From a virus, in the IMG/VR virus record IMGVR_UViG_3300045988_167732, positions 32,001 to 96,000 of that record: a DNA stretch of 64,000 nt. The stretch is one strand, 5' to 3'. Both the position numbers and the translations under genes were made by a program. Of this stretch, positions 2,569 through 32,052 are shown in pieces; the first letter of the stretch is position 1, and each line of letters opens with the position of its first letter. Under the pieces are notes generated by a model. That model was not told where the DNA came from, ran no database searches, and was given only the letters and a program-made list of their open reading frames with translations.

Positions 2569-3683
2569 TTTATTTAGACCATGCGGCTACAACTTTTGTA
2601 TCGCCTGAAATCATTGATATTATTAAAGATGATTTAGCTGAATATTGGGGTAATGCAAGCACGACCTATGGTTTAGGGCGCAAGAGTAAAAATTTAATTG
2701 AGGAAAGTCGTGCAAAAATTGCACATGTTATAGGTGCTTTTCCAGAAGAAATTTATTTTACTTCTGGTAGTAGCGAAGGTAATGCGTGGGCTTTAGCTCA
2801 AAAAAGCAAATGTTTATGTAGTCCTTATGAGCATCATAATATCACAGAAAATCCCAAGTCAATAATTATTGATAAGAATTATCTTATTGATGCTGTTAAA
2901 GTTACAGAGAAAAGTGAAGAGTTGGGTTTTCTGTGGGGAGATTATAGTGGATTTCTTTTGTCTTGGATGTATGTAAATAATGAGACAGGAGAAATTTTTA
3001 ATCCTCGTGAACATATGGATTTAGCTCATAGACTTAATATGTATTATCATTGTGATATGACACAGGCTTTAGGTAATGTTCCTATTGATATTAGACACAT
3101 GGCTGACATTGCTACTTTTAGTGGACATAAGGTGCATTCTCCTAAAGGTGTTGGCTTTATTTATTTTTCAAAAGACACTTTTCCTGTTGAGAAGATTAAG
3201 CCTTTAATTTATGGTGGGGACCAAGAAAGTAATCGTAGAGCTGGTACTGAAAATATTCCTTATATTCATGCTTTAGCTTTAACTGTTGATAAAGCTGTTG
3301 CACATCAAAAAGAAAAAGATTTAGCTTGTAAGAAAATGAAGAAAGCTTTCCTTGAAGAGCTTGGTAAATTATTTGAACCAAATGATTATATGATTGTTTC
3401 TCCTGCAAATAGTATTAATTCTACAGTGTGTGTTTGCTTCCACAATGTAGAGGGAGAAATTCTTCAATCTATGTTAGATGAAAAGGAAATTTATGTAGGG
3501 ACAGGAAGTGCATGTAATACAGGAGATATGAAAGCATCTGCTGTGTTAGAAGCTATGAAGATTCCAGAAGATTATATTCGTGGAGAAATTAGAATTTCTA
3601 TGAATGAAACTCAGAATACAGTTGAAGATGTAATTGAGACTGCAAGAGTATTACATGAATGTTATAAAATGGTTAGGAGTTGA
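2565..3683 (+). CDS. cysteine desulfurase (class V aminotransferase, NifS/IscS-like)
   Basis: N-terminal IYLDHAATT, PLP-lysine context SGHKVHSPKGVG, C-terminal GTGSACN active-site Cys loop. Confidence 0.85.
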   Translation: MIYLDHAATTFVSPEIIDIIKDDLAEYWGNASTTYGLGRKSKNLIEESRAKIAHVIGAFPEEIYFTSGSSEGNAWALAQKSKCLCSPYEHHNITENPKSIIIDKNYLIDAVKVTEKSEELGFLWGDYSGFLLSWMYVNNETGEIFNPREHMDLAHRLNMYYHCDMTQALGNVPIDIRHMADIATFSGHKVHSPKGVGFIYFSKDTFPVEKIKPLIYGGDQESNRRAGTENIPYIHALALTVDKAVAHQKEKDLACKKMKKAFLEELGKLFEPNDYMIVSPANSINSTVCVCFHNVEGEILQSMLDEKEIYVGTGSACNTGDMKASAVLEAMKIPEDYIRGEIRISMNETQNTVEDVIETARVLHECYKMVRS

Positions 3684-3688
3684 TTATA

Positions 3689-6388
3689 ATGAACTTTAAG
3701 CCAAGTACATATCAACAAGATATTTTAGATTTTTTTCTTAACAATCCTCAAAGTAACATGCTTGTAAATGCTTTGGCTGGAAGTGGTAAGTCAACAACTG
3801 CTTGTATGCTTTCTGAACATTCAAAAACTTCTGATTTATATATTGCATTTAATGCAAGCGTAGTTGAAGAGTTTAAGAAAAAAATTAAGAATCCTAAGAC
3901 TAAGGTTATGACGATGCATTCTTTAGCATATTCTATTATGCTTTATAATGTAGAACAAGAATCCAAGGATTCAGGAGAAAAGCCAAAAGGTTTTGGTTCT
4001 CAGCGCTCTAAAAGAACTGTGAGTTTAGATAATTTTAAGCCACATAAAATTCTTGATGAAGAAATTACAAAACGTTATGGTAGATATATTGAATTTGCCA
4101 AACGAGTTTTCTTGAAAGATAATTATGTAAATCTTTATAATTTATGCAGATTAACTCTTACAGATATGTCTTCAAATAAAGATGTATCTCGTTTAATTGA
4201 TGACCATGTGTTATTTTTATATTATGGTGATGAAGGTTATTCTGCACCCGATATTAGTGAAATTACTTCCACTTTGAAGATTCTTGATACTAAAAGTAGA
4301 CAGCAATTTGAAACTCAAGGTGTAATTGATTTTACTGACATGCTTTGGATTACTTTTAATAAACTTAAATATGATAATTGGGAAGTTCCTTATTGGGCTT
4401 TGTATACAAATATTTATTGTGATGAATGTCAAGATTTTAGTAATATCCAATTAAATTTCTTAAAGTTTATTAAAAGAGCTAAAGGAAGATATATTTTCAT
4501 TGGAGATTATCATCAATGTCAACCAGCAGGGACTAAAATTAAACTGATTGATGGAAAAGAAAAAAATATTGAAGATATTCAATATGGAGATAGAGTTGTA
4601 GAATATAGTACAAGTAGAGGTAGTTTTCTTTGTACTGAACGAGAGCGAGTGGGTGGCGGATTCGACAACTGTTTTTGTGGAGTAAAAAGTAAAGGTCTAT
4701 CTACCCCTAAATATTATACAGTATTAGACAAACAAGAATTTTTTACGGATTGTTTAATTAAAGTTACTCTTGAAAACGACTTTACGTCTCGTTATACAAC
4801 AAATCATAATTGTTATGTGAGATTTAATAGAGAAGCCACACAAAATGCCACTTGTCTTTATTTAATGGAAAGAAATGATGGTTATTTTAGAATTGGTACT
4901 GTAAAAATGTATGCTTCTCAAGCAACATTGGGAGTTAAGTATCGCGCAAGAGCAGAAAAGTTTGACCGTTGTTGGATTTTAGATGTTTTTGATAATGAAA
5001 CTTCTGCTTGGATGGCAGAGCAAACATATTCATTAAAATATCAAATTCCACAATTAATTTTTCAATTTGATAAAACTAAATATACTGAACAAGACTTAAT
5101 TACTTTATATAATGAGCTTCCTGAAATGAGAAGTAGAGCCATTGCTTTGTTAGAGTATTTTGGAAGAGATATTAATTATCCTTTGTGGTCAAGAGGAGAT
5201 ATTAATAATCATACTGCAAGAGACCATTGTTTTATTACACAATCGTGTAATATTATTCCTAAATATATGGATGCAATGATTTTTGATTCGACAAATACAA
5301 GGAAAAATAAAACAAGTATTGTTGCTACTTATAAAAATATTCAAAAAGTAGAAAAAGAGATTGGGGTTCAAAAAGTATATGGAATTACAACATCTTCTTA
5401 TCATAACTATATAGCTGATGGAATTTTAACTCATAATAGTATCTATAATTTTGCTGGTGCTAATGCTCAAGCTTTTAATCAAATTCCTAAGATGTTTGCT
5501 CCTGTAGAAACTTTTGATTTACCTATTTGTTATCGTTGTGCCAAATCTCATCTTAGTAGAGTAAATAGAGAATACGGAATTCCTATTCTTCCTCGTGATG
5601 GTGCTCCATTAGGATTCGTTAAAACTATTGACAAAAACAAAATTTCAGAGTATGCTAAAGCAGGAGACATGGTAATTTCCAGAAAAAACAAATGGATAGC
5701 TGAAGTAGTACTTGATTTAGCTCGAAATGGAACTCCCATTTTTATTGAAGATAAAGAGATGGTAGGGGCAATTAAAAGACAGATTTTATCATCCAAATGT
5801 ACCTCGGTTGGCGCACTCAAAAAATTTCTCCAGAAAGTAATAAGTAATTATAATAAAAAACTCTTTGAAATCGTTTCAAAAAATGTCCGTGAGGGGGGAC
5901 ACGAGGAAGAGCATTTGGAAGCCGTGACGGAGACAAATTCTAAGATAGATAACACGAGCTTTTTGTTGGAGATTTTGGAGGGTTATCTTGAACATCATGC
6001 TTCTTCTGACAGTGTTTCTAAATTCTCTAATTTTATTGATAAACTGTTAAATACGACTCCTTCTCCTAATTGTGTTAGACTTTGTAGTATCCATAAAGCT
6101 AAAGGTCTTGAAGCTACAAATGTTTTTGTTTTGAATGAAGCTAAAATTAATTACGATTTTAGGAATAGTAAAGAACAAAATATTCAGGAAAAGAATTTAA
6201 GTTATATTGCAACTACTCGTGCAAAAGAAGGTTTGTATCTTGTTAAAGAACCTTCTAAGACAATAACTACTAGAAATACTGATTATCTTCTTTCAGATAA
6301 CTATCTTCTTCCAGATAACGATGTCTTAAAGAAAAGGGAACAGGATTTTAAGAAAGCTATTGTACGAGAAACTATGGGTTGTTTTTAA
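3689..6388 (+). CDS. UvrD/PcrA-like SF1 helicase interrupted by an intein
   Basis: Walker A ALAGSGKST, DECQD, motif III GDYHQ/SIYNFAGA split by a Hint domain, C-terminal HKAKGLEA and TTRAKEGLY motifs. Confidence 0.85.
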   Translation: MNFKPSTYQQDILDFFLNNPQSNMLVNALAGSGKSTTACMLSEHSKTSDLYIAFNASVVEEFKKKIKNPKTKVMTMHSLAYSIMLYNVEQESKDSGEKPKGFGSQRSKRTVSLDNFKPHKILDEEITKRYGRYIEFAKRVFLKDNYVNLYNLCRLTLTDMSSNKDVSRLIDDHVLFLYYGDEGYSAPDISEITSTLKILDTKSRQQFETQGVIDFTDMLWITFNKLKYDNWEVPYWALYTNIYCDECQDFSNIQLNFLKFIKRAKGRYIFIGDYHQCQPAGTKIKLIDGKEKNIEDIQYGDRVVEYSTSRGSFLCTERERVGGGFDNCFCGVKSKGLSTPKYYTVLDKQEFFTDCLIKVTLENDFTSRYTTNHNCYVRFNREATQNATCLYLMERNDGYFRIGTVKMYASQATLGVKYRARAEKFDRCWILDVFDNETSAWMAEQTYSLKYQIPQLIFQFDKTKYTEQDLITLYNELPEMRSRAIALLEYFGRDINYPLWSRGDINNHTARDHCFITQSCNIIPKYMDAMIFDSTNTRKNKTSIVATYKNIQKVEKEIGVQKVYGITTSSYHNYIADGILTHNSIYNFAGANAQAFNQIPKMFAPVETFDLPICYRCAKSHLSRVNREYGIPILPRDGAPLGFVKTIDKNKISEYAKAGDMVISRKNKWIAEVVLDLARNGTPIFIEDKEMVGAIKRQILSSKCTSVGALKKFLQKVISNYNKKLFEIVSKNVREGGHEEEHLEAVTETNSKIDNTSFLLEILEGYLEHHASSDSVSKFSNFIDKLLNTTPSPNCVRLCSIHKAKGLEATNVFVLNEAKINYDFRNSKEQNIQEKNLSYIATTRAKEGLYLVKEPSKTITTRNTDYLLSDNYLLPDNDVLKKREQDFKKAIVRETMGCF
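4517..5437 (+). mobile_element. intein (307 aa) inside helicase motif III
   Basis: Starts with Cys (CQPAGTKIKLIDG). Has block B TTNHNCYV and ends ..GILTHN followed by Ser. Removal rejoins GDYHQ-SIYNFAGA. Confidence 0.8.
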
Positions 6389-6635: not shown

Positions 6636-7355
6636 ATGGCTAATATTTTTAGTCGCAATTACAAGTTTGATGAGCCAAAGGTAACTTCTACTCAGAATAA
6701 GGATTATTTTACTACCGCAGTTGCTTCTACTGATGAAGATGGTAAGATTGTTTCTACTTCTGGTTATGTTTCTGTTTTGAAGCCCAAGGTAATGCATTGT
6801 CCTGACTGTGGTTGTCCTCTTGTGGTGCGTGATGGTAAGCTTGAATTTGCCGATGAAGATGATGAAGTCGATGATAACAGTTATGAAAATCCTGTTGAGT
6901 ACGAAGAAGTAAATAAGGATATGTTCGACCTTCCTCCTTATTACAATATCTGTTATGGTATCCCCGCTGACCTCTCTTTAGGTAGCGATACTGCTCGTAG
7001 ACTTGACAATTATTATCATATTGTTGATAAGATTCCTAATAAGTTTGATGAGCGTTGTGCTGGTGAAGCTATTTGGATTCGGAATTTATTTTTACTTATG
7101 ATTGCTAATAAGAAGTATGAACCAATTACTATGACTAATCTTGAACATTGTGTTGAAGACCTTGCTCAATATTGTATTAATGAAGAGATTTCTTATCTTG
7201 CTATGCCTTTTATTGGGTGTGGTAAGGGTAATCTTGATTGGGAAGATGTTCGTGAAATGATTCTTCGTGTTTTTACTGAAACGATTGAAGATGCTAAAAA
7301 GTTTGACGAGGTAAGCAAGAATTATAAGATTCATCTTACTTTCTGCTACCAGTAA
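6636..7355 (+). CDS. zinc-ribbon protein with possible C-terminal macro-like domain
   Basis: HCPDCGCP ribbon. C-terminal LAMPFIGCGKGNLDWEDV resembles the macro-domain IGcGxgGL loop. AAG/CTT-type codon usage. Confidence 0.5.
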   Translation: MANIFSRNYKFDEPKVTSTQNKDYFTTAVASTDEDGKIVSTSGYVSVLKPKVMHCPDCGCPLVVRDGKLEFADEDDEVDDNSYENPVEYEEVNKDMFDLPPYYNICYGIPADLSLGSDTARRLDNYYHIVDKIPNKFDERCAGEAIWIRNLFLLMIANKKYEPITMTNLEHCVEDLAQYCINEEISYLAMPFIGCGKGNLDWEDVREMILRVFTETIEDAKKFDEVSKNYKIHLTFCYQ

Positions 7356-7424: not shown

Positions 7425-7462
7425 AATCATAGAGATTTACTTATTAAGAAAGGAAGTGGAAA

Positions 7463-8389
7463 ATGCCCTATAAAAAAAGAAAAGATAATTTGTGGTGTGT
7501 TTATAAGCATACAAGCCCTTCTGGTGGAGTATATATAGGAATAACAAGTGATTATCCTTTAGCAAGGTGGAGAAATGGTCGAGGATATGATTGTTGTGAA
7601 ATTATGAATAAAGCTATAAAAAAATACGGTTGGGAAAATTTTACTCATGAAATATTATTTGATAATTTAACAAAAGAAGAAGCTTGTTAGAAAGAAATAG
7701 AATTAATAGCCTTTTACAAAAATTAGGGACATTGTTATAATTTAGCTGAACGGGGAACTAATGGATTAGCTTCAGAAGAAACTAAAAAGAAAATGTCTTC
7801 AAATAGACAACGGAAAAACGCTCATGGTTGGCGGCATGTTGTTTCTTTAGAAACTAAACAAACGGTAGCTAAAAAAATAAAAGGAATTAAAAGAAATTCA
7901 AAGACAAAAGAAAAATTAAGTAGCACGCATAGCAAAAAAGTTTACTAGTATAATTTAGATGGAGAATTAATTCAGGAATGGGACAGCGTATATCAAGCAT
8001 CTAATATATTAGGATTAGCTCGAAGTCCAATTACACGTTGTAGATTATATTAGCAAAAAACTTATTAGAACTGTTTATGGCTGCTTGATTATATTGATGC
8101 CGTATTAATATAGAAATATTTAAACGATGAAATCATTATTCCTCCGATTAAAAATAAGTCTTTATTACAAAAGAAAGTAAGTTGTTTTTAGGATGAGAAA
8201 AAAATTAAAACTTTTGATTCTATAAAAGAAGCTTCAAAATGGTCAAAAATTACTGAACAGCAAATTCGGTATGCTTGTAAAAATAATAAAATTGCAGGAG
8301 AATATTATTGGAAATATGAAGAAGATTATTTTGGTGACAATTATTTTCTTTATTGGGCCAATAATTAGGACAAAATAAAATAGGAGTAA
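7463..8389 (+). CDS. GIY-YIG homing endonuclease with NUMOD/IENR-like C-terminal repeats; needs read-through of 9 in-frame TAG codons
   Basis: N-terminal GVYIGIT..Y..R motif. Beyond the first TAG the same frame gives typical VYxYNLDGELIQEWDSVYQAS and IKTFDSIKEASKW..GEYYWKY repeats. The first TAA is at 8387. Confidence 0.8.
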
Positions 8390-8390
8390 T

Positions 8391-9650
8391 ATGGAATATT
8401 GTAAATATCTTATTTTAGTAGACCCTAATAATAATGGGGTTGATTCAAACAAATTCTACAAAATGGCTGGAAATGGTGATAATACGTTTACTGTAGAATA
8501 TGGTCGTGTTGGTGCTGCTCCTCAAACTAAAACTTATCCTATGTCTAAATGGAATTCTACTCTTTCTTCTAAGTTGAAGAAGGGATATGTTGACCGTTCT
8601 GATTTAATGCAGGAAGTTATTGCTGATTCTAAAGTTGAAGACAAGTCTAATGGTGTAGATGAATTTGGTTTGGTTCAAAACCTATCTGTCCGAGAGATTA
8701 TCAAGCGTCTTTGGGATTATGCTAATAAGACTATTCAATCTGCTTATTCTGTTCGTGCTGAAGCTGTTACTCAGGCTATGATTGATGCCGCTCAGGAAAA
8801 GATTGACTATATTGCAGCGAATTACAAAAACTGGTCTGTTGAGGAATTTAATAAGAATTTAAATGAGTTGTTCATTATTGTTCCTCGTAAGATGAAGCGT
8901 GTTTCTGATTGTCTTGTTTCTGATTCTTCCGAATATGATAAAAAGCTTTCCGAGGAACAGAGCTTGCTTGATACTATGGCTGGTCAAGTTTATAAACCCA
9001 AGGCAAAAATTGCTGACACTGATTCTGAGATTAAGGCTTCTGAAAGCATTTTGCAGAAGATGGGTATTACCATGGAAGAAGCTACTCAGGAAGATGTTGC
9101 TAAAATTAAAAAGGCAATGGGCGATTCTGCTGGGAAGTTTTACAAGGCTTGGCGTGTCACTAATCTTGAGACAGAAAAGAATTATCAGAAGTTTACAACT
9201 GAAAATAATATCGGTAATGTAAAACTTCTTTGCCATGGTAGTCGCAATCAGAATTGGTTTAACATTCTTAAGATGGGCTTGAAAATTCGTCCTGCTGGTG
9301 CAATTGCAACAGGAAGTATGTTTGGCCTTGGAATCTATTGGTCCAACCCTGAAAAGTACAAAGGAGGAGTAGCTAAGTCTATTGGGTACACTTCTTTGGG
9401 TGGATATTGGACTCGTGATTATCAGAATTGTGGCTTCCTTGCCTTCTTTGATGTAGCTATCGGAGATAGTGTTGATGCCTATTCTTTTGATTCCAAGTAT
9501 TATTCTTATAATCTTGAGAGACTAAAAAAGGACAATCCTAAAGCTTGGAGTTTGTGGGCTCATGGCAATACTTCTATGCTTCGCAACGATGAAATTATCG
9601 TTTACGATGACAGACAGATGACTATTCGATATTTAGTGGAGATTAGATAA
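8391..9650 (+). CDS. PARP-like ADP-ribosyltransferase with N-terminal WGR domain
   Basis: WGR-like FYKM..TVEYGRVG. C-terminal H-Y-E pattern: LLCHGS, GLGIYWS, NDEIIVY. Confidence 0.8.
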   Translation: MEYCKYLILVDPNNNGVDSNKFYKMAGNGDNTFTVEYGRVGAAPQTKTYPMSKWNSTLSSKLKKGYVDRSDLMQEVIADSKVEDKSNGVDEFGLVQNLSVREIIKRLWDYANKTIQSAYSVRAEAVTQAMIDAAQEKIDYIAANYKNWSVEEFNKNLNELFIIVPRKMKRVSDCLVSDSSEYDKKLSEEQSLLDTMAGQVYKPKAKIADTDSEIKASESILQKMGITMEEATQEDVAKIKKAMGDSAGKFYKAWRVTNLETEKNYQKFTTENNIGNVKLLCHGSRNQNWFNILKMGLKIRPAGAIATGSMFGLGIYWSNPEKYKGGVAKSIGYTSLGGYWTRDYQNCGFLAFFDVAIGDSVDAYSFDSKYYSYNLERLKKDNPKAWSLWAHGNTSMLRNDEIIVYDDRQMTIRYLVEIR

Positions 9651-9651
9651 A

Positions 9652-10143
9652 ATGATTGGTGAAATGCAGACTGCTTCTAGTGTAACTTTTGGTATTCCTT
9701 CTGATTTTCCTTCTCTTGTAGACTCTGTTGTGGGTTCTCTTAAAAAGGGATATAGAGATTATTGTTTTACAAATAAGCAACTAAAAGAAATTATTGAGAA
9801 ATGCCATGAGGCAAATGTAAGTTTTGCTTATCGTAAGCAGTTAGATGAAGATTGCAAGATTGAATATATTGAACTTATTCCTTGTACTTTTTATTTTGCA
9901 GAAACAGTTGAGGAAAATAAGGTAGAAAACATTCAAGTAGCAATGGAAAATCTTCCTGTGGCATTGATTTTCTGTCCTAAAAATAATAAGACTGATATTA
10001 CTATTGATGCTGATTATCAGGAAAAGAACGAAAAAAGAGTGAAGAGTTATAAGAAGCTTGCATATTTCGATGATGATGGTTATCCAGTATATATTGAAGA
10101 CCTTACGAGAATGAAAGAAGAAAAAGAAAATGGAACTTTCTAA
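9652..10143 (+). CDS. hypothetical protein
   Basis: 163-aa ORF starting 1 nt after the upstream stop. Confidence 0.7.
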   Translation: MIGEMQTASSVTFGIPSDFPSLVDSVVGSLKKGYRDYCFTNKQLKEIIEKCHEANVSFAYRKQLDEDCKIEYIELIPCTFYFAETVEENKVENIQVAMENLPVALIFCPKNNKTDITIDADYQEKNEKRVKSYKKLAYFDDDGYPVYIEDLTRMKEEKENGTF

Positions 10144-11020
10144 TGAATAGAAAGAAGTTTTATATGGATGCCTTTTGGGGGATGGAAATTTAAATATTCA
10201 CAAAAGCGCTAAAAATGCTACTTTTTCTTATACTTGTATTGATAAAGAAACGGTAGAAAAAGTTGCTTCTTATTTTACCAAAGATTTTTTCGGTAAGGTA
10301 TCTTTTTGTTAGTATTTTGACAAAAGAACCAATAAGGTTTATAGTCGTTATACTTATAGAACTTTATCATCTCCTGTTTTAACTGAAGAATATTATAATT
10401 GGTATCCCGATAAAAAGAAAATCATACCAAAAATAAATTTTACTCCCTTGATATGTTATTGGTGGTATATAGGTGACGGATGTTTAGATAAAAGACGTAT
10501 TTTTTTAGCGACAGATTGTTTTCCTAAAAGTAATCTGGAAGAAATCGTTTTGCCTAAATTAAACGATTTTTCACCAAGATTAATTAAAAATGGGAAAGAA
10601 ACTCATTTTAGGACTTGTTTTTCAGTTGAACGGTCTCAAAAATTTTTAGAGTATATTGGTGAATGTACTTTACCACATTTTTCTTATAAATGGGATTTTG
10701 TTCCTTTTGTAAATAATAAATATAATTTTTCAGAAAAAGAATAGAAAAATATTCTTTATTTAGCCAATCAAAATTTATCTCCTTTTTAGATTTCTAAAAT
10801 CATTTAGAAATATAATGTAGATACAATACGTTATTTTTTAAAGCAAAAAGGATTATATTCTCCTAAAGGCAACAAAGGCGCTCATTTGAAAACATTAATT
10901 AAAGAAAAAATTAATTCTCGGTTATCAGTGGAATTGATTTTAAAAGATTTAAATATTACTTTAGAACAATATTAGTATTTTTAGGATTTTGAAAAATTGA
11001 GGAATAAATATGGAATATAA
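10130..11020 (+). CDS. LAGLIDADG homing endonuclease with C-terminal HTH-like tail; needs read-through of 7 in-frame TAG codons
   Basis: Two LAGLIDADG-type motifs (LLGDGNL, WYIGDGCL) lie in one frame interrupted only by TAG. The frame continues past 10744 into LSPFxISKII..DTIRYFLK and ends at TAA 11018. Confidence 0.8.
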
Positions 11021-11834
11021 GACATTAGGTGACAGGATGAAGGGGGCTTATGAAAACAAATATCGTAATTATCTTCCTGAGAATCTTCCTGTTATCATAA
11101 GAGAAGACGGTGCTCATTTTCACAATTTCTGCCGTGGCATGAAGAAACCTTTCGACCCTATTTTTGTTAAAACCATGCAACAGACTATGCTTAAGCTCTG
11201 TGAACTTATTCCTAATGTTAAGTTTGGTTATGTTGAGTCTGATGAAATTTCTCTTGTCATGATTCAAAGTGAAAGAAATTCTCAGCCTTGGTTTGATAAT
11301 AATATTCAAAAGATTGTTAGTACATCTGCGGCTCTTTGCACTCTTTGGTTTAACAATTATTTTGCTGAGAATACTATTATTGATACAACCTTGGATATCT
11401 TTAATATAGACAAAGATTCTTACGATTGGAAAATGGTTCGTAAAGGACAAGAAATGCCTACTTTTGATAGTAGAGTATTTGTGGTCCCTGCCTTTGAAGT
11501 GCATAATTATTTTGTTTGGAGACAGCAGGATTGTACTCGAAATTCTATTCAGGCAGTTGCTCAATCTTTGTATTCTCAAAAAGAACTTCATGGTATTAAT
11601 ACTACCAAATTACAGGATAAGATGTTTACTGAAAAGGGTGTAAACTGGAACGATTATACGACAGTAGAGAAACGTGGTACTTGTGCTTATCGTATTCCTA
11701 CTACTGTTATTGGTAAAGATGGTCAAGAGACTATTCGTTATAAATGGATTCTTGATTATGAAATGCCAATTTTAACAAGTGAAGAAGGTAAAGACTTTAT
11801 TAGTCAGAAGGTATTTACCAATGAGTCTGTTTAA
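11010..11834 (+). CDS. Thg1-like protein (tRNA-His guanylyltransferase / 3'-5' polymerase family)
   Basis: GDRMKxYE, IREDGAHFHNF and FGYVESDEISLV match the Thg1 N-terminal catalytic motifs. Confidence 0.8.
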   Translation: MEYKTLGDRMKGAYENKYRNYLPENLPVIIREDGAHFHNFCRGMKKPFDPIFVKTMQQTMLKLCELIPNVKFGYVESDEISLVMIQSERNSQPWFDNNIQKIVSTSAALCTLWFNNYFAENTIIDTTLDIFNIDKDSYDWKMVRKGQEMPTFDSRVFVVPAFEVHNYFVWRQQDCTRNSIQAVAQSLYSQKELHGINTTKLQDKMFTEKGVNWNDYTTVEKRGTCAYRIPTTVIGKDGQETIRYKWILDYEMPILTSEEGKDFISQKVFTNESV

Positions 11835-12291: not shown

Positions 12292-12819
12292 ATGCAGTTT
12301 CAAGTTATGAGTCGTAGAGATTGTGTTAAGTATAGTTATGGTTCTCATGAAGAATCTTCTATTGTAATTAGCATTAACGATTCTGCCGATATTGGAGTGC
12401 GTCAACTTCCTAATAAATTTAATAACATTAAAGCGCAATTATCTCTCTTTTTTGATGACATTCAGCCATATAGAGGTATGAAATACTGGAAGAAAGATGA
12501 AGGCGTAATTATAGAAAATTATACAAACGCAGAGGGGTTTGTATATGAGTCTCGCATGTATCAGCTTATGACTGAAAAAGATGCTAAGAAAATTATTGAT
12601 TTTGTCAATAAATGGTATAATAAAGTAGACAAAATTATTGTACATTGCAATGCTGGAATTAGTCGTTCTTCTGGTGTTTGCGCTGGTATTATGAAATGTT
12701 TTACAGGTGATGATAGTCAGATTTATGATAATCCATATTATCATCCCAATACCTTGTGTTATAATTTAATTTTAAATGAATATTATAAGGAAGGAGGAAA
12801 AAGTAATGGAGACGCTTAA
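12292..12819 (+). CDS. Cys-based phosphatase (PTP/dual-specificity, CX5R)
   Basis: Active-site signature VHCNAGISRSSG. Confidence 0.75.
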   Translation: MQFQVMSRRDCVKYSYGSHEESSIVISINDSADIGVRQLPNKFNNIKAQLSLFFDDIQPYRGMKYWKKDEGVIIENYTNAEGFVYESRMYQLMTEKDAKKIIDFVNKWYNKVDKIIVHCNAGISRSSGVCAGIMKCFTGDDSQIYDNPYYHPNTLCYNLILNEYYKEGGKSNGDA

Positions 12820-15544: not shown

Positions 15545-16018
15545 ATGTCAGTGTCTATTATTCAAGGCGATGTCCTTAAGACTTCGGCAAAGTATATTTG
15601 TCATCAGGTTAATACCTTTGGCGTAATGGGCGCTGGTGTTGCTCTTCAAATTAAGAAGAATTATCCTCATGTTTATTTGGAGTATAATAAATTTTGTAGT
15701 TATCATGCTCCTGAAGAGCTTTATGGCAAAGTTCTTCGAATTGAAGAAAATAAAGATAAAGTTTTTCTTAATATGTTTTCTCAGATTGGTATTGGCGGAC
15801 CAAACGTAAACACCAATTATGAATATTTTCATGAATGTCTTCTTAAGATTCGTGAAATGATTCCTATTGGAGAAGAGATTGCTATGCCTTATATGATTGG
15901 ATGTGGTCTTGCTGGTGGAGATTGGTCTATTATTAGCGCAGATATTTCTGACACTTTAGGACTAAGCCATATTGTACGTTTGTATGATTTTAATGGCGTG
16001 ACTTCGGTGAAAAAGTAA
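15545..16018 (+). CDS. macro domain protein (ADP-ribose binding/hydrolase)
   Basis: IQGDVL..ICHQVNTFGVMGAGVA and IGCGLAGGDW are classic macro-domain motifs. Confidence 0.85.
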   Translation: MSVSIIQGDVLKTSAKYICHQVNTFGVMGAGVALQIKKNYPHVYLEYNKFCSYHAPEELYGKVLRIEENKDKVFLNMFSQIGIGGPNVNTNYEYFHECLLKIREMIPIGEEIAMPYMIGCGLAGGDWSIISADISDTLGLSHIVRLYDFNGVTSVKK

Positions 16019-16559: not shown

Positions 16560-16704
16560 GCAGGATTAGTGTTAGCGGTTAGCACGACGGTCTTCCCCTT
16601 TAATAGTTTAATGTAAAACCAATATGAAAATATTGATGTAAGTTCAAATCTTATTTAAAGGTCCAAAACCGTAAGGGCGAGTTCGAATCTCGTATCTTGC
16701 TCCA
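16560..16704 (+). tRNA. tRNA-Gly(TCC) interrupted in the anticodon loop by a 69-nt tRNA-like element
   Basis: Acceptor GCAGGAT/ATCTTGC, D-stem GTGT/GCAC, anticodon stem ACGGT/ACCGT, T-arm GCGAG-TTCGAAT-CTCGT, discriminator T plus CCA. Removing 16597-16665 leaves the loop CTTCCAA. Confidence 0.75.
16597..16665 (+). ncRNA. nested tRNA-like element (acceptor, D-arm, GAAA hairpin, T-arm, TCCA end)
   Basis: CCTTTAA/TTAAAGG acceptor, GTTT/AAAC D-stem, CAATAT-GAAA-ATATTG hairpin, GTAAG-TTCAAAT-CTTAT T-arm, then T-CCA. Confidence 0.7.
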
Positions 16705-17809: not shown

Positions 17810-17928
17810 CCTCATTAGTGTAATGGTGCATTCTCGTTAACTGATGTTGAGTAAACACTAAGGTAGCTCCTTAGCGATAACAGCCACATTGGGAGAGGAA
17901 GTTGGTTCGAATCCAATTATGGGGTCCA
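17810..17928 (+). tRNA. tRNA-like gene with a ~45-nt insertion in the anticodon region; isotype unresolved
   Basis: Acceptor CCTCATT/TATGGGG (6 of 7 pairs), T-arm GTTGG-TTCGAAT-CCAAT, T-CCA end, candidate anticodon stem TCTCG/TGGGA flanking a 52-nt segment. Confidence 0.4.
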
Positions 17929-19841: not shown

Positions 19842-19917
19842 GCTCGGTTAGTCAAGTGGTCTAAGACGGCGGGTTTTCATCCCGTAAACAAGAGTTCGAT
19901 TCTCTTACCGAGTACCA
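19842..19917 (+). tRNA. tRNA-Glu(TTC), CCA encoded
   Basis: Anticodon loop TTTTCAT, T-loop TTCGATT. Confidence 0.8.
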
Positions 19918-20232: not shown

Positions 20233-20375
20233 GCCCGTGTAGCTCAGTAGGAAGAGCACTTGCCTTGATGGAGTAGTATAAGAAATACATCCTATAAAGG
20301 AAGGTGTGAGTTCAAATCTCATTTTCATCACCGTTAAGCAAGGAGTCGAGAGTTCGAGCCTCTCCACGAGCACCA
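20233..20375 (+). tRNA. tRNA-Lys(TTT) (alternative reading Asn-GTT) interrupted by a 67-nt tRNA-like element
   Basis: Canonical D and T arms, anticodon stem CTTGC/GCAAG, discriminator A plus CCA, one C-A mismatch in the acceptor. Removing 20267-20333 leaves CTTTTAA. Confidence 0.65.
20267..20333 (+). ncRNA. nested tRNA-like element (ACCG end)
   Basis: GATGGAG/TTTCATC acceptor, GTAT-AAGAA-ATAC D-arm, GTGAG-TTCAAAT-CTCAT T-arm. Confidence 0.65.
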
Positions 20376-20503: not shown

Positions 20504-20588
20504 GGGTGAGTAGTGAATCGGCAAACACGGGAGTCTGTAAAACTCTTTCTTAACGGAGTAGAAGGGTCGGCACCTTCCTCACCCACCA
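20504..20588 (+). tRNA. tRNA-Tyr(GTA), class II, CCA encoded
   Basis: Anticodon loop CTGTAAA, long variable arm, unusual T-loop GTCGGCA. Confidence 0.8.
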
Positions 20589-20907: not shown

Positions 20908-21036
20908 TAGACTCTAACAGCAACTTTACAATCACAAATGCTATGGGCCTGTTTGTTGGAGGTTCGAATCCTTCACTCCCGACCATCGGGAGTTAGCTCA
21001 ACGGATAGAGCAACAGATTTTGTAAAAATGAGTCTA
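20908..21036 (+). ncRNA. P1/ACAGCAA structured RNA, copy 5: circularly permuted tRNA (3' half-ACCA-T-5' half)
   Basis: TAGACTC..GAGTCTA stem. GGAGG-TTCGAAT-CCTTC T-arm, ACTCCCG-A-CCA, one T, then CGGGAGT-TA-GCTC..GAGC D-arm and a U-rich anticodon-like segment. The acceptor is a perfect 7 bp. Confidence 0.7.
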
Positions 21037-23427: not shown

Positions 23428-23943
23428 ATGAGCAATAATAATTCAATCGAAATCGAACGTAAGTTTTTAATCTCTGGTTTTCCTAAAGTCGATTTTGATG
23501 AAGTCGGAATTGTTAAAACTATCTATATTAATATCAAATATAATTCTGATGGAAAAATTTTACAGGAAATTCGTATAAGACGTTGGTTTGAAAGTGGCAA
23601 AGGTTATCGTCCAGATGCTCTTACTTTTAAATCTGGTGGTACTTTAATTCGTACCGAAATTGAAACAAATCTTACAGATAATTCTTTGTTTGACTGTTTT
23701 AATGAACTTGGTTATAATCCTATTGTAAAAGATTATAGAGGTCTTTACAATAATGGTTGTTTAATTGAATTTAATCTTGTAGATGGCGGAACTGATACTG
23801 CTTTCTACTATGCCGAAGTTGAATTCAATTCTGAGGAAGAAGCTAATAGTTTTGTTTGGCCTTTTCCTGAAGTATTTATTGAGGAAGTTACTAATAAGCT
23901 TGAATATAAGATGGCAAATTATTGGAAACGTACTCGTGGATAA
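23428..23943 (+). CDS. CYTH-domain protein (triphosphate tunnel metalloenzyme)
   Basis: N-terminal IEIERKF carries the ExExK signature. Confidence 0.75.
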   Translation: MSNNNSIEIERKFLISGFPKVDFDEVGIVKTIYINIKYNSDGKILQEIRIRRWFESGKGYRPDALTFKSGGTLIRTEIETNLTDNSLFDCFNELGYNPIVKDYRGLYNNGCLIEFNLVDGGTDTAFYYAEVEFNSEEEANSFVWPFPEVFIEEVTNKLEYKMANYWKRTRG

Positions 23944-23966: not shown

Positions 23967-24098
23967 GCTTTCGTGGCTCAATCGGTAGAGCGCCTGATTT
24001 GATAGAGTGACAGAATGTATTGTCTTAGTTTGCAAGTTCAAGTCTTGCCTTTATCACCAGTAATCAGGATGTTGCAGGTTCGAGTCCTGTCGGAAGCT
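23967..24098 (+). tRNA. tRNA-Thr(TGT) interrupted by a 59-nt tRNA-like element; host CCA not encoded
   Basis: Acceptor GCTTTCG/CGGAAGC, anticodon stem CCTGA/TCAGG. Removing 24001-24059 leaves TTTGTAA. Confidence 0.75.
24001..24059 (+). ncRNA. nested tRNA-like element (ACCA end)
   Basis: GATAGAG/CTTTATC acceptor, GACA/TGTC D-stem, 7-nt linker, GCAAG-TTCAAGT-CTTGC T-arm, A-CCA. Confidence 0.7.
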
Positions 24099-24161
24099 GG
24101 GAACAAGGTCAAGCCTTCACGTTGGCGTTCCTGTTTAAACTAATTGACTAAAAGAGGTTTT

Positions 24162-25037
24162 ATGAAATATTGTCTCAATTGTGGTAAAGAATTAAATAAA
24201 CAAGTAAAAAAATTTTGTGATAATAAATGTTTTGTTGAATATTAGTATCACAAATATATTAAAAACTGGAAGCTTGGTAAAATTACAGGGGTCGTTGGTT
24301 TTGGGGTTAGTAAATATATAAGAAGATATTTATTAGAAAAGTATAATTATTCTTGCCAAGAATGTGGTTGGAATAAAATTAATCCTTATACTAATAAAAC
24401 ACCTTTGGAAATTCACCATAAAGATGGAAATTATTTAAATTGTTCAGAAGAGAATTTAGCTTTGCTTTGCCCCAACTGTCATTCTTTAACAGATACTTAT
24501 AAATCTTTGAATAGACCAGAAATGAGAAGAGATAGAACAAGATACAATCAAAGACCCAATCCTTTTTTTGATGAATTAAATTGTGATAAGAAAGAAAAGA
24601 AAAAATATTTTTGTCCGGTTTGTGGCAATGAAATAACCCGCAAGGCAAAATTATGTCTTAATTGCAGAAAAAAGGAAAATTTGAAAAACTCTAATAAACC
24701 CTCTAAAGAAATTTTAATGGAAGAATCTAAAAATTTTGTCTCTTATGTAAAATTAGGGGAAAAATATGGGGTATCTGACAATACTATTAGGAAGTGGTTC
24801 TCAAGTTACGATTTGCCTCTTCCTAAAAGGGAAAAAGCAGAATATAAACCAAAAGTCTACCATCCAGAATATTAGGTTTATACAACAAGAAAAACAGCTA
24901 CAGGATGGGAAAAATACTTAAAATTGGGTCAGCATAAAATTGCTCGATATGTTCCCAACCATACTGTTTCTCAAATAGAAGATTACATAAAAATTTTTTA
25001 TGATGAAGCTGTGAAAAAAGGAATTATTAATAAATAA
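24162..25037 (+). CDS. HNH homing endonuclease (2 in-frame TAG)
   Basis: N-terminal CLNCG..C..C ribbon, HHKDGN..N..NL..LCPNCH HNH core. The frame continues through TAG at 24873 to TAA 25035. Confidence 0.8.
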
Positions 25038-25876: not shown

Positions 25877-26010
25877 GCTGATATAGCTCAATAGGTTAGA
25901 GCTTCCGACCACGAAATAGCTTAAGAAAAGCAAAGGATGTAAGTTCAAATCTTACTTTCGTGACCATTATAATCGGAGGGTTGAGTGTTCGAGCCACTCT
26001 ATCAGCACCA
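25877..26010 (+). tRNA. tRNA-Ile(TAT) interrupted by a 57-nt tRNA-like element
   Basis: Canonical arms, anticodon stem TCCGA/TCGGA, A-CCA end. Removing 25910-25966 leaves CTTATAA. Confidence 0.75.
25910..25966 (+). ncRNA. nested tRNA-like element (ACCA end, no anticodon arm)
   Basis: CACGAAA/TTTCGTG acceptor, GCTT-AAGAA-AAGC D-arm, 7-nt linker, GTAAG-TTCAAAT-CTTAC T-arm, A-CCA. Confidence 0.75.
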
Positions 26011-26107
26011 TTTAAATACAGGTAGCATTGGAGTAATTAACCAATGAGAAAATAATGCCCAAACATTAAGCTGTATTTTTTAAAAATTCTTTTGGGAGGA
26101 TTAAAAA

Positions 26108-26905
26108 ATGATTGAGTTAACTGAAGAACAGAAAAAATTAGAATTGTCAAATGATAATTGGAAAATTGTTCCAAATTGGTCAAGATATGAAGTAAATTAG
26201 TATCGGATTCTACGAAACAAAAAAACCAAACATATTTTAACATCAAAAGATAATAAGAGAGGATATTTAATTTATCTTGTTCTTAGAGATGATGATAACA
26301 GAATTCACATTTTGTCAAAACATAAAGCTGTAGCTTTGGCATGGGTTCCCAACCCCTAGAATTTACCTATTATAAATCACAAAGACGAAGACAAATTAAA
26401 TTGCTTTTATTAGAATTTAGAATGGTGTACAAGCAGTTATAATAACAGTTACAACGGGACAGGTAAAAAGAGAAGTGAAAAATTTAAAAAGACTTTTTTT
26501 GTTTATGATTCTGAGCGGAATTTAATAGAAAAAAGAAAAGGCATAAATGAATTTTGCGCAGAAAATAATTTATCTTCTCGGTGTGCTAGTTCTATTTTAA
26601 AAAAGAATAGTGAAGAAGAAAAATGTTATAGTATAAAAGGATTTTATCTTTTTTACGAACAAATAACAAAAGAAGATTTTTTATAGAGAAAGCAAAAAGT
26701 TTTTAATATAGGGAATTTAGGCAAAAAGAAATTTTCTAAAAAAGTTTATCAATATGATTTACAAAACAATCTTCTTCAAATTTATTCTAGTGTACATGAA
26801 GTTAAAGAGAAAAATGATTTAGCTACAACGTCAGTAATAAGTGCTTGTTGTAGAAATAAAATAAAAACTGCTTATGGATATAAATGGAGTTATGTTCCAT
26901 TATAA
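26108..26905 (+). CDS. HNH/NUMOD-type homing endonuclease (4 in-frame TAG)
   Basis: W..VPNWSRYEV, GY..YL, VHR-like KHKAVALAWVPNP, NHKDEDKLN..NLEW, C-terminal AYGYKWSY. All lie in one frame broken only by TAG. Confidence 0.8.
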
Positions 26906-26997: not shown

Positions 26998-27078
26998 GCG
27001 CCTGTAGTCTAATTGGATAAAACAGCACTCTTCTAAAGTGTATTTTTTATACGAGTTCGAATCTCGTCAGGCGTACCA
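26998..27078 (+). tRNA. tRNA-Arg(TCT), CCA encoded
   Basis: Anticodon loop CTTCTAA, T-loop TTCGAAT. Confidence 0.8.
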
Positions 27079-27153
27079 TGAGGAGTAGCATAGCGGCAAA
27101 TGCACTAGTCTCTAAAACTAGGTAAACAGGGTCGGCACCTGTCTCCTCTGCCA
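27079..27153 (+). tRNA. suppressor tRNA, anticodon CTA (reads UAG)
   Basis: Anticodon arm CTAGT-CTCTAAA-ACTAG, T-arm ACAGG-GTCGGCA-CCTGT, G-CCA end. D-loop, anticodon arm and T-loop closely resemble the phage tRNA-Tyr, but the long variable arm is missing. Positions 1:72 form a T-T mismatch. Confidence 0.75.
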
Positions 27154-31503: not shown

Positions 31504-32052
31504 ATGAAACAAATTAGAAAAAATGTTTTTGAGACTAATTCTTCAAGTGTTCATTCATTGAGTATTAGTAGTAAAGATAATTATGATTATACTCAATTAG
31601 ATGATTATATTGAAGAAGATTATGGTCACAATGGTTACGGCAAGTATCTAAAATTAAATTTTGAAGCCTTTGGATGGGGTTGGGATTCTGATTTAGATGA
31701 CAATAGCGCAATAGCTAAACTTGAATATATTTTAACTGCTATAACTTGTTTCCAAGGTTATAATGTTAATTGGAGCAGCAAAGAAGATAAAGAAGAAGCT
31801 ATTAAAGAAGTTATGGAATCTGATGATTTCCAAAAGTTTGAAGATGATGTAAAGTACGCTCTTTCTAAACATGATATTCACATTACAGGAATTGAAATTA
31901 GTCCTGATGAAGATGGTTATGTAGACCATCAAAGTCTTGATTATTATGTTTCTGATGGAATGTATTATATTTTTGCAAGAGATGGAATTACATTAGAAGA
32001 TTATATTTTTAATAAATGTTATAGTTTGATTATCGACAATGACAATCACTAA
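31504..32052 (+). CDS. FETNSSS-family protein, paralog 1
   Basis: N-terminus MKQIRKNVFETNSSSVHS is shared with 33301, 34340 and 37840. The C-terminus is acidic. Confidence 0.75.
   Translation: MKQIRKNVFETNSSSVHSLSISSKDNYDYTQLDDYIEEDYGHNGYGKYLKLNFEAFGWGWDSDLDDNSAIAKLEYILTAITCFQGYNVNWSSKEDKEEAIKEVMESDDFQKFEDDVKYALSKHDIHITGIEISPDEDGYVDHQSLDYYVSDGMYYIFARDGITLEDYIFNKCYSLIIDNDNH

Follow-up and report, generated by a model that had tools for sequence, protein, structure and literature searches.

The closest described counterparts of the element examined here are the 'enigmatic introns' of Lak megaphages, which interrupt phage tRNA genes (Tyr, Phe, Thr and Gly) in the anticodon loop (Devoto et al. 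2019, PMC6784885). We analysed a 64,000-nucleotide (nt) stretch of viral DNA (IMG/VR record IMGVR_UViG_3300045988_167732, positions 32,001 to 96,000; hereafter the window), in which a gene for tRNA-Ile(UAU) at 25877-26010 is interrupted in its anticodon loop by a 57-nt insert that is itself shaped like a tRNA. The Lak introns share this site, carry a tRNA-like module at their 3' end, with a tRNA found by Rfam inside the Thr intron, and are identical across cohorts and present or absent between genomes, as here (PMC6784885). By our own reading of Table S6 of that report, they differ in length (79-114 nt), in starting with a hairpin and an A-rich linker, and in lacking CCA, ending 1-2 nt past the acceptor strand (PMC6784885). 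In the present family, by contrast, the whole intron is a mini-tRNA with an NCCA end and no anticodon arm, found at four loop positions. The Lak paper neither proposed a mechanism nor defined a family, and it gave no splice-site rule and no analysis of covariation (PMC6784885); a full-text search of the literature returned nothing relevant beyond that report. The compact, CCA-ended form without an anticodon arm, its splice-site rule, covariation, polymorphism and spread appear to be undescribed.

Other systems share some of these features. To our knowledge, bacterial-type tRNA genes are thought to hold self-splicing introns only. Bacterial group I introns, such as those of cyanobacterial tRNA-Leu(UAA) and Azoarcus tRNA-Ile, also lie in the anticodon loop, at differing sites, and are mobile and patchy, but they are ribozymes of at least 200 nt with a conserved catalytic core (P3-P9), whereas the insert has 57 nt and no ribozyme signature. 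The introns of archaea and eukaryotes that are cut and religated by proteins (EndA or TSEN with RtcB or Trl1) are likewise short, non-self-splicing and in or near the anticodon loop, and archaeal ones occupy non-canonical positions too; however, the insert lacks their bulge-helix-bulge (BHB) geometry, its splice sites are set by its own tRNA-like ends, and its setting is bacterial or phage. We know of no EndA-type tRNA-splicing pathway in bacteria or their phages. Modules that resemble tRNAs are also cut from longer RNAs by RNase P and RNase Z, as in mascRNA from MALAT1, mitochondrial tRNA punctuation and viral tRNA-like structures. There the embedded tRNA mimic is the processing signal for both of its own ends, and mascRNA, which has no normal anticodon loop, is a substrate of the CCA enzyme. 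The flanks of such modules are not rejoined, whereas here they are tRNA halves needing ligation, so that removal would be splicing. YrlA and other bacterial Y RNAs are tRNA mimics with acceptor, D and T arms and no anticodon loop, but they are free-standing small RNAs with a long Ro-binding stem and are not nested in a tRNA gene.

The interrupted gene lies on the + strand. Its 5' exon (25877-25909) supplies the acceptor 5' strand GCTGATA, TA, the D-arm (GCTC-AATAGGTTA-GAGC), a single T, the anticodon-stem 5' strand TCCGA and one loop nucleotide, C32. The 3' exon (25967-26010) continues with the remaining loop TTATAA, the anticodon-stem 3' strand TCGGA, the variable loop GGGTT, the T-arm (GAGTG-TTCGAGC-CACTC), the acceptor 3' strand TATCAGC and A-CCA. 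The insert, at 25910-25966, splits the loop between C32 and U33. Run with its defaults, ARAGORN placed a + strand array of 16 tRNAs at 13.4-27.2 kb, without this gene among them; with introns allowed it reported tRNA-Ile(tat) [25877,26010], with a 57-nt intron after gene position 33 and the junction 'ccgac-Intron-ttata'. Once the insert is removed, the host gene gives a canonical cloverleaf with a 7-nt loop in ARAGORN. The spliced junction would read TTCCGAC followed by TTATAATCGGA, also written as GAGCTTCCGAC followed by TTATAATCGGAGG. A reading made earlier by a model from the sequence alone had described the gene in these terms. Re-reading the sequence reproduced its letters base for base, and its identification of the host as Ile(UAU), its insert limits, its arms and its 7-nt linker in place of the anticodon arm were right. 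The loop it had derived for the excised product, CTTATAA, occurs in the same anticodon arm (TCCGA-CTTATAA-TCGGA) in uninterrupted Ile(UAU) genes of other, less closely related phages (L005, L008 and L012; loci are designated by L numbers throughout). It had counted this gene as the fourth interrupted tRNA, and ARAGORN with introns allowed together with our insert parse gave four in the window.

The arms of the insert are an acceptor stem (CACGAAA, 25910-25916, with TTTCGTG, 25956-25962), a D-arm (25919-25931, GCTT-AAGAA-AAGC, preceded by TA) and a T-arm (25939-25955, GTAAG-TTCAAAT-CTTAC, T-loop TTCAAAT), followed by the discriminator A (25963) and CCA (25964-25966). There is no anticodon stem-loop: only the linker AAAGGAT (25932-25938) stands between D-arm and T-arm. 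Folded alone with RNAfold, the 57-mer gave this nested cloverleaf as both minimum-free-energy and centroid structure (-11.7 kcal/mol, z = -2.07), with acceptor, D-arm and T-arm stems of 7, 4 and 5 bp, the 7-nt linker, the T-loop UUCAAAU and an unpaired ACCA. Its folding energy is about 2 standard deviations (SD) better than that of shuffled sequences, so that thermodynamic stability alone is only modestly unusual. The case for a mini-tRNA is strong because of covariance-model scores, covariation in relatives and orthologues with empty sites, not because of stability. A search of the whole window with the Rfam tRNA model (RF00005) matched the insert at 25910-25963 with 43.2 bits (gathering threshold 29; E = 7.6e-6), covering model positions 1-71 with the anticodon arm deleted, and a covariance model of the insert family, R1, scored it at 64.7 bits. 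The tRNA-shaped insert in tRNA-Ile is real and no chance fold; it is a tRNA mimic, not a tRNA.

Relatives of the window were drawn from IMG/VR by two scans, one with an Ile exon word and one with an array-embedded protein, which yielded 13 syntenic tRNA-array loci on 12 related contigs of ~116-216 kb. ARAGORN and a simple parser were used to build a presence/absence matrix for the window and the 13 loci, and 42 inserts were parsed (26 unique; 11 types, in 8 tRNA species). Their core is constant: the 7-bp acceptor stacks on a T-stem of 5 bp, the T-loop has 7 nt (TTCAAAT-like or TGCAAGA-like) and the 3' tail has 4 nt. Among 18 aligned members, all 12 acceptor and T-stem pairs were 100% paired, and double compensatory changes were seen in 9 of the 12, among them every acceptor pair. 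None of 500 column shuffles reached the observed covariation score, and slid controls were only 36-56% paired. Outside the core the family varies. The D-arm differs between members or is absent (it is weak in Lys-50, where the name gives host and insert length), and the region of the anticodon arm holds nothing, a 7-nt linker, a 3-6 bp tetraloop hairpin or larger insertions. Tails are mostly NCCA (ACCA, TCCA or CCCA), with a few ACCG, ACAA and TTCA that are still 4 nt long. Acceptor-stem sequences differ freely between types.

All 42 inserts run from base 1 of the acceptor stem to the fourth base past the 7-bp stem, whether they follow loop nucleotide 1, 3, 4 or 5. Empty sites equal the spliced gene base for base in three tRNA species: Gly (window against L020 and L022), Gln (L016 against L020) and Thr (L017 against L020). 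Since these uninterrupted orthologues have identical exons, the boundaries in Gly, Gln and Thr are unambiguous and independent of the structural parse. Pairing at 7 of 7 acceptor positions was a filter of the parser, and types without an empty-site orthologue rest on that filter and on the requirement for a 7-nt loop, which counts against generality of the boundaries; the Gly, Gln and Thr cases are independent of the filter. Because the empty sites place both ends at acceptor base 1 and 4 nt past the stem, it is the intron itself, and not where it lies in the host loop, that sets the splice-site rule.

This geometry bears on whether the insert is an intron of a known kind, either a ribozyme (a self-splicing group I intron or some other) or an archaeal BHB intron cut by EndA. 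An anticodon-loop site is common to both classes. However, 57 nt is far under group I size, and over 12-29 kb Rfam gave no ribozyme or intron match, either at the gathering threshold or with E <= 1; its only matches were tRNA and a sub-threshold YrlA. Both junctions adjoin one and the same end of the insert's terminal helix, at +1 of the 5' strand and 4 nt beyond the 3' strand, whereas those of a BHB motif lie in two 3-nt bulges, one at either end of a 4-bp helix, and no EndA-like ORF (open reading frame) was seen in the ~84 kb of DNA examined. A known intron type is therefore very improbable.

Occupancy of the sites differed between genomes of the clade. Gly genes carried a 69-nt insert, a 58-nt insert or none; Lys genes a 67-nt insert after loop nucleotide 3, a 50-nt insert after loop nucleotide 4, or none; and Thr genes 59 nt, 87 nt or none. 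Gln(UUG), Glu(UUC) and Pro(UGG) genes were either empty or held inserts of 85, 66 and 62 nt, respectively. The Gly, Lys, Thr, Gln, Glu and Pro genes with and without insert occur in sister genomes and have identical or near-identical exons. Ile(UAU) was always interrupted, in the window and in 13 of 13 syntenic loci, by a 57/58-nt insert after loop nucleotide 1 or by an unrelated 59-nt insert after loop nucleotide 5.

The exons of the interrupted Ile genes appear to be maintained. Seven distinct exon sets of widely differing sequence, with acceptor strands such as GCTGATA, GGTGAGG, GGGGATG, GGTGTTG and TCCCAAG, form one cloverleaf in which 14 of 21 pairs are compensated and 0 are broken. In the window ARAGORN, with introns allowed or not, turned up no intact gene for Ile(UAU), Gly(UCC), Lys(UUU) or Thr(UGU). 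As judged from this pattern of exon substitution, the interrupted Ile genes are under selection and functional. Given the compensated exon cloverleaf and the lack of intact isoacceptor copies, the insert must therefore leave the RNA or, improbably, be tolerated there, and we consider it probable that a functional tRNA loses it at the RNA level. A selfish insertion resembling a miniature inverted-repeat transposable element (MITE), never removed from RNA and leaving dead tRNA pseudogenes, would suit the presence/absence polymorphism and the recurrence of one insert in different exon backgrounds (Ile-59, Lys-67). It fits poorly with the 14 compensated and 0 broken stem pairs, with an Ile(UAU) gene that is conserved yet interrupted in every clade genome, and with the lack, in the window, of an intact paralogue for any of the four interrupted isoacceptors. 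Insertions are, moreover, confined to anticodon loops, and their removal always gives a perfect 7-nt loop. We regard the pseudogene explanation as quite improbable.

How the insert might leave the RNA is suggested by its ends. Both coincide with canonical mature tRNA ends, and the conserved core is the minihelix module recognised by RNase P, RNase Z and the CCA enzyme. For bacterial RNase P, a stack of acceptor and T-stem suffices as substrate; U at position -1 is preferred, and the enzyme pairs with C74 and C75. The insert has the 12-bp acceptor/T stack, the T-loop, a pyrimidine at -1 (C in the Ile copy) and the 3' NCCA of such a substrate. Across the family the preceding base was U in 16 of 19 types and C in the other 3, never a purine (P ~0.002 under uniform placement in the loop); U at -1 was also found in 19 of the 21 RNA genes of the window array.

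We therefore propose the following pathway, in conditional terms, as all functional statements on these introns are drawn from DNA. The insert would fold on its own within the precursor. RNase P would see it as a tRNA and cut at its +1, the 5' splice site, leaving a 3'-OH on the 5' exon. A tRNA 3'-end endonuclease would cut right after the insert CCA, the 3' splice site, leaving a 5'-phosphate on the 3' exon; this enzyme could be RNase E or an RNase Z able to cleave downstream of an encoded CCA. T. maritima RNase Z cleaves just past an encoded CCA, and RNase E is also able to create CCA ends (PMC7479834). The exons would be held together by the host acceptor, D and T arms and the anticodon stem. 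An RNA ligase that takes 3'-OH and 5'-phosphate ends would then join them, restoring the loop CUUAUAA and freeing the 57-nt mini-tRNA. T4 Rnl1 seals nicks of this kind in anticodon loops, and such a nick is the classic substrate of Rnl-type ligases. We rate the chances as about even that this is a functional phage tRNA-Ile(UAU) with a mini-tRNA intron of a mobile family, cut out by tRNA end-processing enzymes and followed by exon ligation. Removal by the end-processing enzymes in the manner proposed is put forward more tentatively, at a little short of even.

Several points weigh against removal by this route. RNase Z is inhibited by CCA in many Firmicutes, and the enzyme of the 3' cut is uncertain for that reason. 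No RNA ligase, RtcB or splicing endonuclease (EndA) was found in ~84 kb around the array, of a ~221-kb genome; this search covered the window and 10 kb on each side, with Pfam and PHROGs applied to ~65 ORFs and precomputed Pfam assignments used for the flanks. The sole ligase in that region is an NAD-dependent DNA ligase, upstream. The tails ACAA (Pro-62, and Lys-67 in L026), TTCA and ACCG misfit a strict CCA requirement, and one lineage beyond the clade (L076/L143) has tRNA genes without CCA yet an insert tail of ACCA. In Lak megaphage introns an extra 5' hairpin precedes the tRNA-like module, and cutting by RNase P alone would leave it in place.

As the main rival, a dedicated endonuclease of phage or host would read the mini-tRNA shape and leave 2',3'-cyclic phosphate and 5'-OH ends, with the exons joined by heal-and-seal repair (kinase/phosphoesterase plus ligase) or by RtcB. 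An enzyme that measures shape would cope more easily with the non-CCA tails ACAA, ACCG and TTCA, and RNA-repair-type genes recur beside intron-bearing tRNA arrays. Thg1-like and DSP-type phosphatase genes border the window array, a YrlA-like RNA lies within it, and a P-loop kinase-like ORF (644-1207) and a metallophosphoesterase (just upstream of the window) are nearby. Ro60/TROVE-like DUF2828+DUF7788 proteins are encoded in the window (39375-41144) and in L073, L162 and L143, and there is an RlaP nucleotidyltransferase in L073, an AAA_33 kinase-HD fusion in L146 and an AAA_33 kinase in L069. Yet neither a candidate endonuclease nor a ligase was found in the ~84 kb around the array, and the repair genes are equally explained as counter-defence against host anticodon nucleases; these neighbours may serve anti-defence RNA repair. 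The Thg1-like gene is also present on ~55 other large phage contigs and was not seen on other intron-bearing contigs. Sampling of 80 tRNAs in 70 Thg1-like loci returned 3 nested introns, all from the window's clade (Pro-62). Association of the Thg1-like gene with the introns was thus set aside as a weak negative, the gene being widespread in large phages and the search pattern-limited. Junctions at tRNA ends, U at -1 and the trend in CCA tails are more economically explained by RNase P with 3'-end processing, and we consider a dedicated nuclease unlikely, if the most credible of the alternatives.

The mini-tRNA might also be the main product and the host tRNA its carrier, the 57-mer then serving to decoy defence enzymes that target tRNAs, to regulate or to prime. 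The D-arm, T-loop and CCA are kept in the insert, beyond the acceptor/T-stem stack that is enough for RNase P, and free-standing mini-tRNA genes of the same design exist in other phages. These anticodon-less genes lie un-nested in tRNA arrays (L041, L061, L075, L081 and L119; L045 and L064; L047, L096 and L116; L030; L171), share the acceptor/D/T layout, often have a GAAA-capped mini hairpin and mostly lack CCA. Such a role would be compatible with splicing by end-processing enzymes rather than exclusive of it, and the excised mini-tRNA is a possible second product. As the main product, however, it is hard to reconcile with inserts that are dispensable, the Gly, Lys, Thr, Gln, Glu and Pro genes occurring with and without them in sister genomes, or with acceptor sequences that vary freely. 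No free-standing copies were found in the window's clade: model R1, run with filters off, detected just the four nested copies in the window, and its strong matches in 393 kb of related and unrelated loci were all nested in anticodon loops. Within this clade the element exists inside anticodon loops only. No identity element such as G3:U70 is common to the family's acceptor stems, so a specific charging role is not favoured. We regard a carrier role for the host tRNA as improbable.

The introns appear to move between genomes. One intron was found in different exon backgrounds (Ile-59 in GGGGATG... and GGTGAGG... alleles, Lys-67 in two alleles), and related introns occupy the same loop position in different tRNA species: Thr-59/87 and Pro-62 share the D-arm TGACAGAATG. 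Together with the identical exons that occur with and without an intron, these sequence comparisons favour a history in which recombination between co-circulating phage genomes adds and removes introns precisely, with occasional transposition. The Ile gene is followed, and the interrupted Thr gene is flanked, by HNH genes (26105-26905 and 24144-25037), and collaborative homing with them was unsupported as a requirement: L013, L024 and L025 carry an identical Ile intron with no endonuclease ORF downstream. A dedicated homing enzyme was not evident, since in L013 and L024 the same Ile intron lacks the HNH genes that the window has.

Nested mini-tRNAs were also present in unrelated IMG/VR contigs from other samples. 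This census beyond the window's clade was a pattern scan with one D-arm variant and gives a lower bound. Inserts were found in Leu(UAA) (L038/L099, L069), Lys(UUU) (L058, L102, L073), Asp(GUC) (L104/L111, L076) and Ile(UAU) (L033). A scan of genome contigs added Asp (L123, L143), Glu (L134/L162) and Lys (L146); most matches in that scan were ordinary Nostoc tRNAs with a TAGTTTAA D-arm and were discarded as false positives, and the true nested cases sit on contigs of metagenome-assembled genomes (MAGs) that look phage-derived. The family spans at least 9 tRNA species and several phage lineages.

Tail format was compared with the format of each phage's own tRNA genes. Phages that encode CCA in their tRNA genes have inserts with 4-nt tails of the NCCA type (CCA in 16/16 tRNA genes of the window, 13/13 of L038, 6/6 of L058 and 10/11 of L104), and L073, with CCA in 0/7 tRNA genes, has a 1-nt insert tail, the discriminator only. 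Tail format follows the phage's own gene format as a trend, not a rule, there being three CCA-less lineages when Lak is counted.

If excision by RNase P is true, the pathway would be categorically new. Its splicing logic would be one in which splice sites are the ends of an embedded mini-tRNA, RNase P would gain a role in intron removal, and the 'enigmatic introns' of Lak megaphages would be accounted for. A third tRNA-splicing route in bacteria infected by large phages, combining RNase P, after-CCA or RNase Z-type cuts, religation by a repair ligase and mobile introns, is what the sequences tentatively suggest, though we would not yet call it probable. The interrupted genes that default tRNA finders miss make up 4 of ~20 in the window and all read A-ending codons. 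Phage tRNA repertoires, and codon-usage arguments built on them, are systematically incomplete for this reason. The introns could gate the supply of these tRNAs (Ile-AUA, Lys-AAA, Gly-GGA and Thr-ACA) during infection, and the fact that near-identical genomes have gained or lost them so precisely gives a way to study how they move.

Three further interrupted genes lie on the + strand of the window. Gly(UCC) (16560-16704) has a 69-nt insert at 16597-16665 with tail TCCA, which divides the loop as CTTCC/AA, after loop nucleotide 5, and carries a small GAAA-capped hairpin where the anticodon arm would be. ARAGORN labelled this gene Trp(CCA); the label was rejected, as the exons are 100% identical to those of the uninterrupted Gly(UCC) of L020 and L022. 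Lys(UUU) (20233-20375) has a 67-nt insert at 20267-20333 with tail ACCG (CTT/TTAA, after loop nucleotide 3). Thr(UGU) (23967-24098), a host gene without encoded CCA, has a 59-nt insert at 24001-24059 with tail ACCA (TTT/GTAA, also after loop nucleotide 3). The ARAGORN label of this gene, Ile(GAT) or Ile(GAU), was rejected by the insert parse and by its call of Thr(tgt) on the spliced product, and counterparts at the same position in relatives are diverged Thr(tgt) genes. The Ile(UAU) insert, with tail ACCA, divides its loop as C/TTATAA, after loop nucleotide 1.

The window is identical to part of scaffold_22, a 220,795-bp metagenome contig (ENA ERZ28659889, sample SAMEA2467028). It has 33% G+C, and the large majority of its ORFs, including all with a family assignment, are on one strand. 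Recognisable genes encode a holin, an intein-containing UvrD helicase, ThyX, a C5 methylase, a radical-SAM enzyme and TnpB, which indicates a jumbo phage as the source; the assembly name suggests a human gut origin. Hints of a Firmicutes host come from the LL-H-type holin and from dockerin and the MAG bins of unrelated intron-bearing contigs. Megablast of 13-28 kb found no close relative among INPHARED phages.

Enzymes acting on RNA or nucleotide ends surround the array (window 11010-11834, 12292-12819, 644-1207, 6636-7355, 15545-16018 and 8391-9650; L250 8629-9240 and 5257-7233). They comprise a Thg1-like 3'-5' polymerase directly upstream of the array, a DSP/Rit1-like phosphatase, the P-loop kinase-like ORF, two macro-domain proteins, a WGR-PARP, a metallophosphoesterase, an NADAR protein and, just upstream of the window, the NAD-dependent DNA ligase. 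The cluster is reminiscent of heal-and-seal or 2'-phosphotransferase chemistry; no RNA ligase accompanies it in the ~84 kb. The YrlA-like match within the array lies at 20931-21029 (RF02553, 41 bits, under the gathering threshold of 69), and the slot it fills is what ARAGORN miscalls 'Thr i(38,~100)' in relatives. The Ro60/TROVE-like gene of the window is 18 kb downstream of this match, and DUF2828/TROVE genes stand beside nested-intron arrays on unrelated contigs (L073 8604-10115, L162 5825-7261, L143 6437-8000).

An amber suppressor tRNA(CUA) closes the array. It abuts tRNA-Arg(UCU) with a 0-nt spacer (26998-27153), so that CCA stands directly before the next +1. In four relatives the suppressor tRNA has a ~200-219-nt insert in its anticodon loop (L016 16184-16488, L022 17596-17889, L023 18850-19142 and L026 17879-18183); this insert matched no Rfam family, group I included, even at E <= 1. 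In-frame TAG codons are concentrated in homing-endonuclease ORFs, of the types GIY-YIG/NUMOD1 (9), LAGLIDADG (7), HNH (2) and HNH+NUMOD1 (4), and in one unknown ORF (5). The TAG-rich ORFs are at 7448-8389, 10115-11020, 24144-25037, 26105-26905 and 38821-39303, and most window genes use the standard code. Public gene calls skip 7448-8389 and 10115-11020, the two TAG-rich ORFs in the annotated stretch examined. This distribution suggests that the TAG-rich mobile genes depend on the phage amber suppressor.

A 119-nt RNA at 17810-17928 has a tRNA-like acceptor stem, a T-arm and a TCCA end, with a middle that could not be assigned. It is conserved in most relatives, ARAGORN making a call at the matching position in 12 of 13 syntenic loci, and one substitution keeps an acceptor pair. 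ARAGORN treats it as a tRNA with an intron, but the anticodons differ between genomes, and it was rejected as a member of the insert family; the Rfam tRNA model gave just 14.7 bits. Between tRNA-Ser and the interrupted tRNA-Thr lies an ORF of 171 amino acids (23428-23943) with the motif EIERKF (CYTH-like ExExK); it belongs to phrog_6660, a group of unknown function, and has no Pfam match. The intein splits the UvrD-family helicase at 3680-6388, and the TnpB/IS605 OrfB gene (62183-63502) is near the window end. Upstream of the tRNAs at 19842, 20233, 21226, 25877 and 26998, a GTCTAG motif stands at ~10-15 nt (~30 nt for tRNA-Tyr at 20504), and it also occurs beside 21029. The tRNA leaders nearly always end in ...TAT or ...AAT right before +1. 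These motifs may be a phage promoter or a processing signal.

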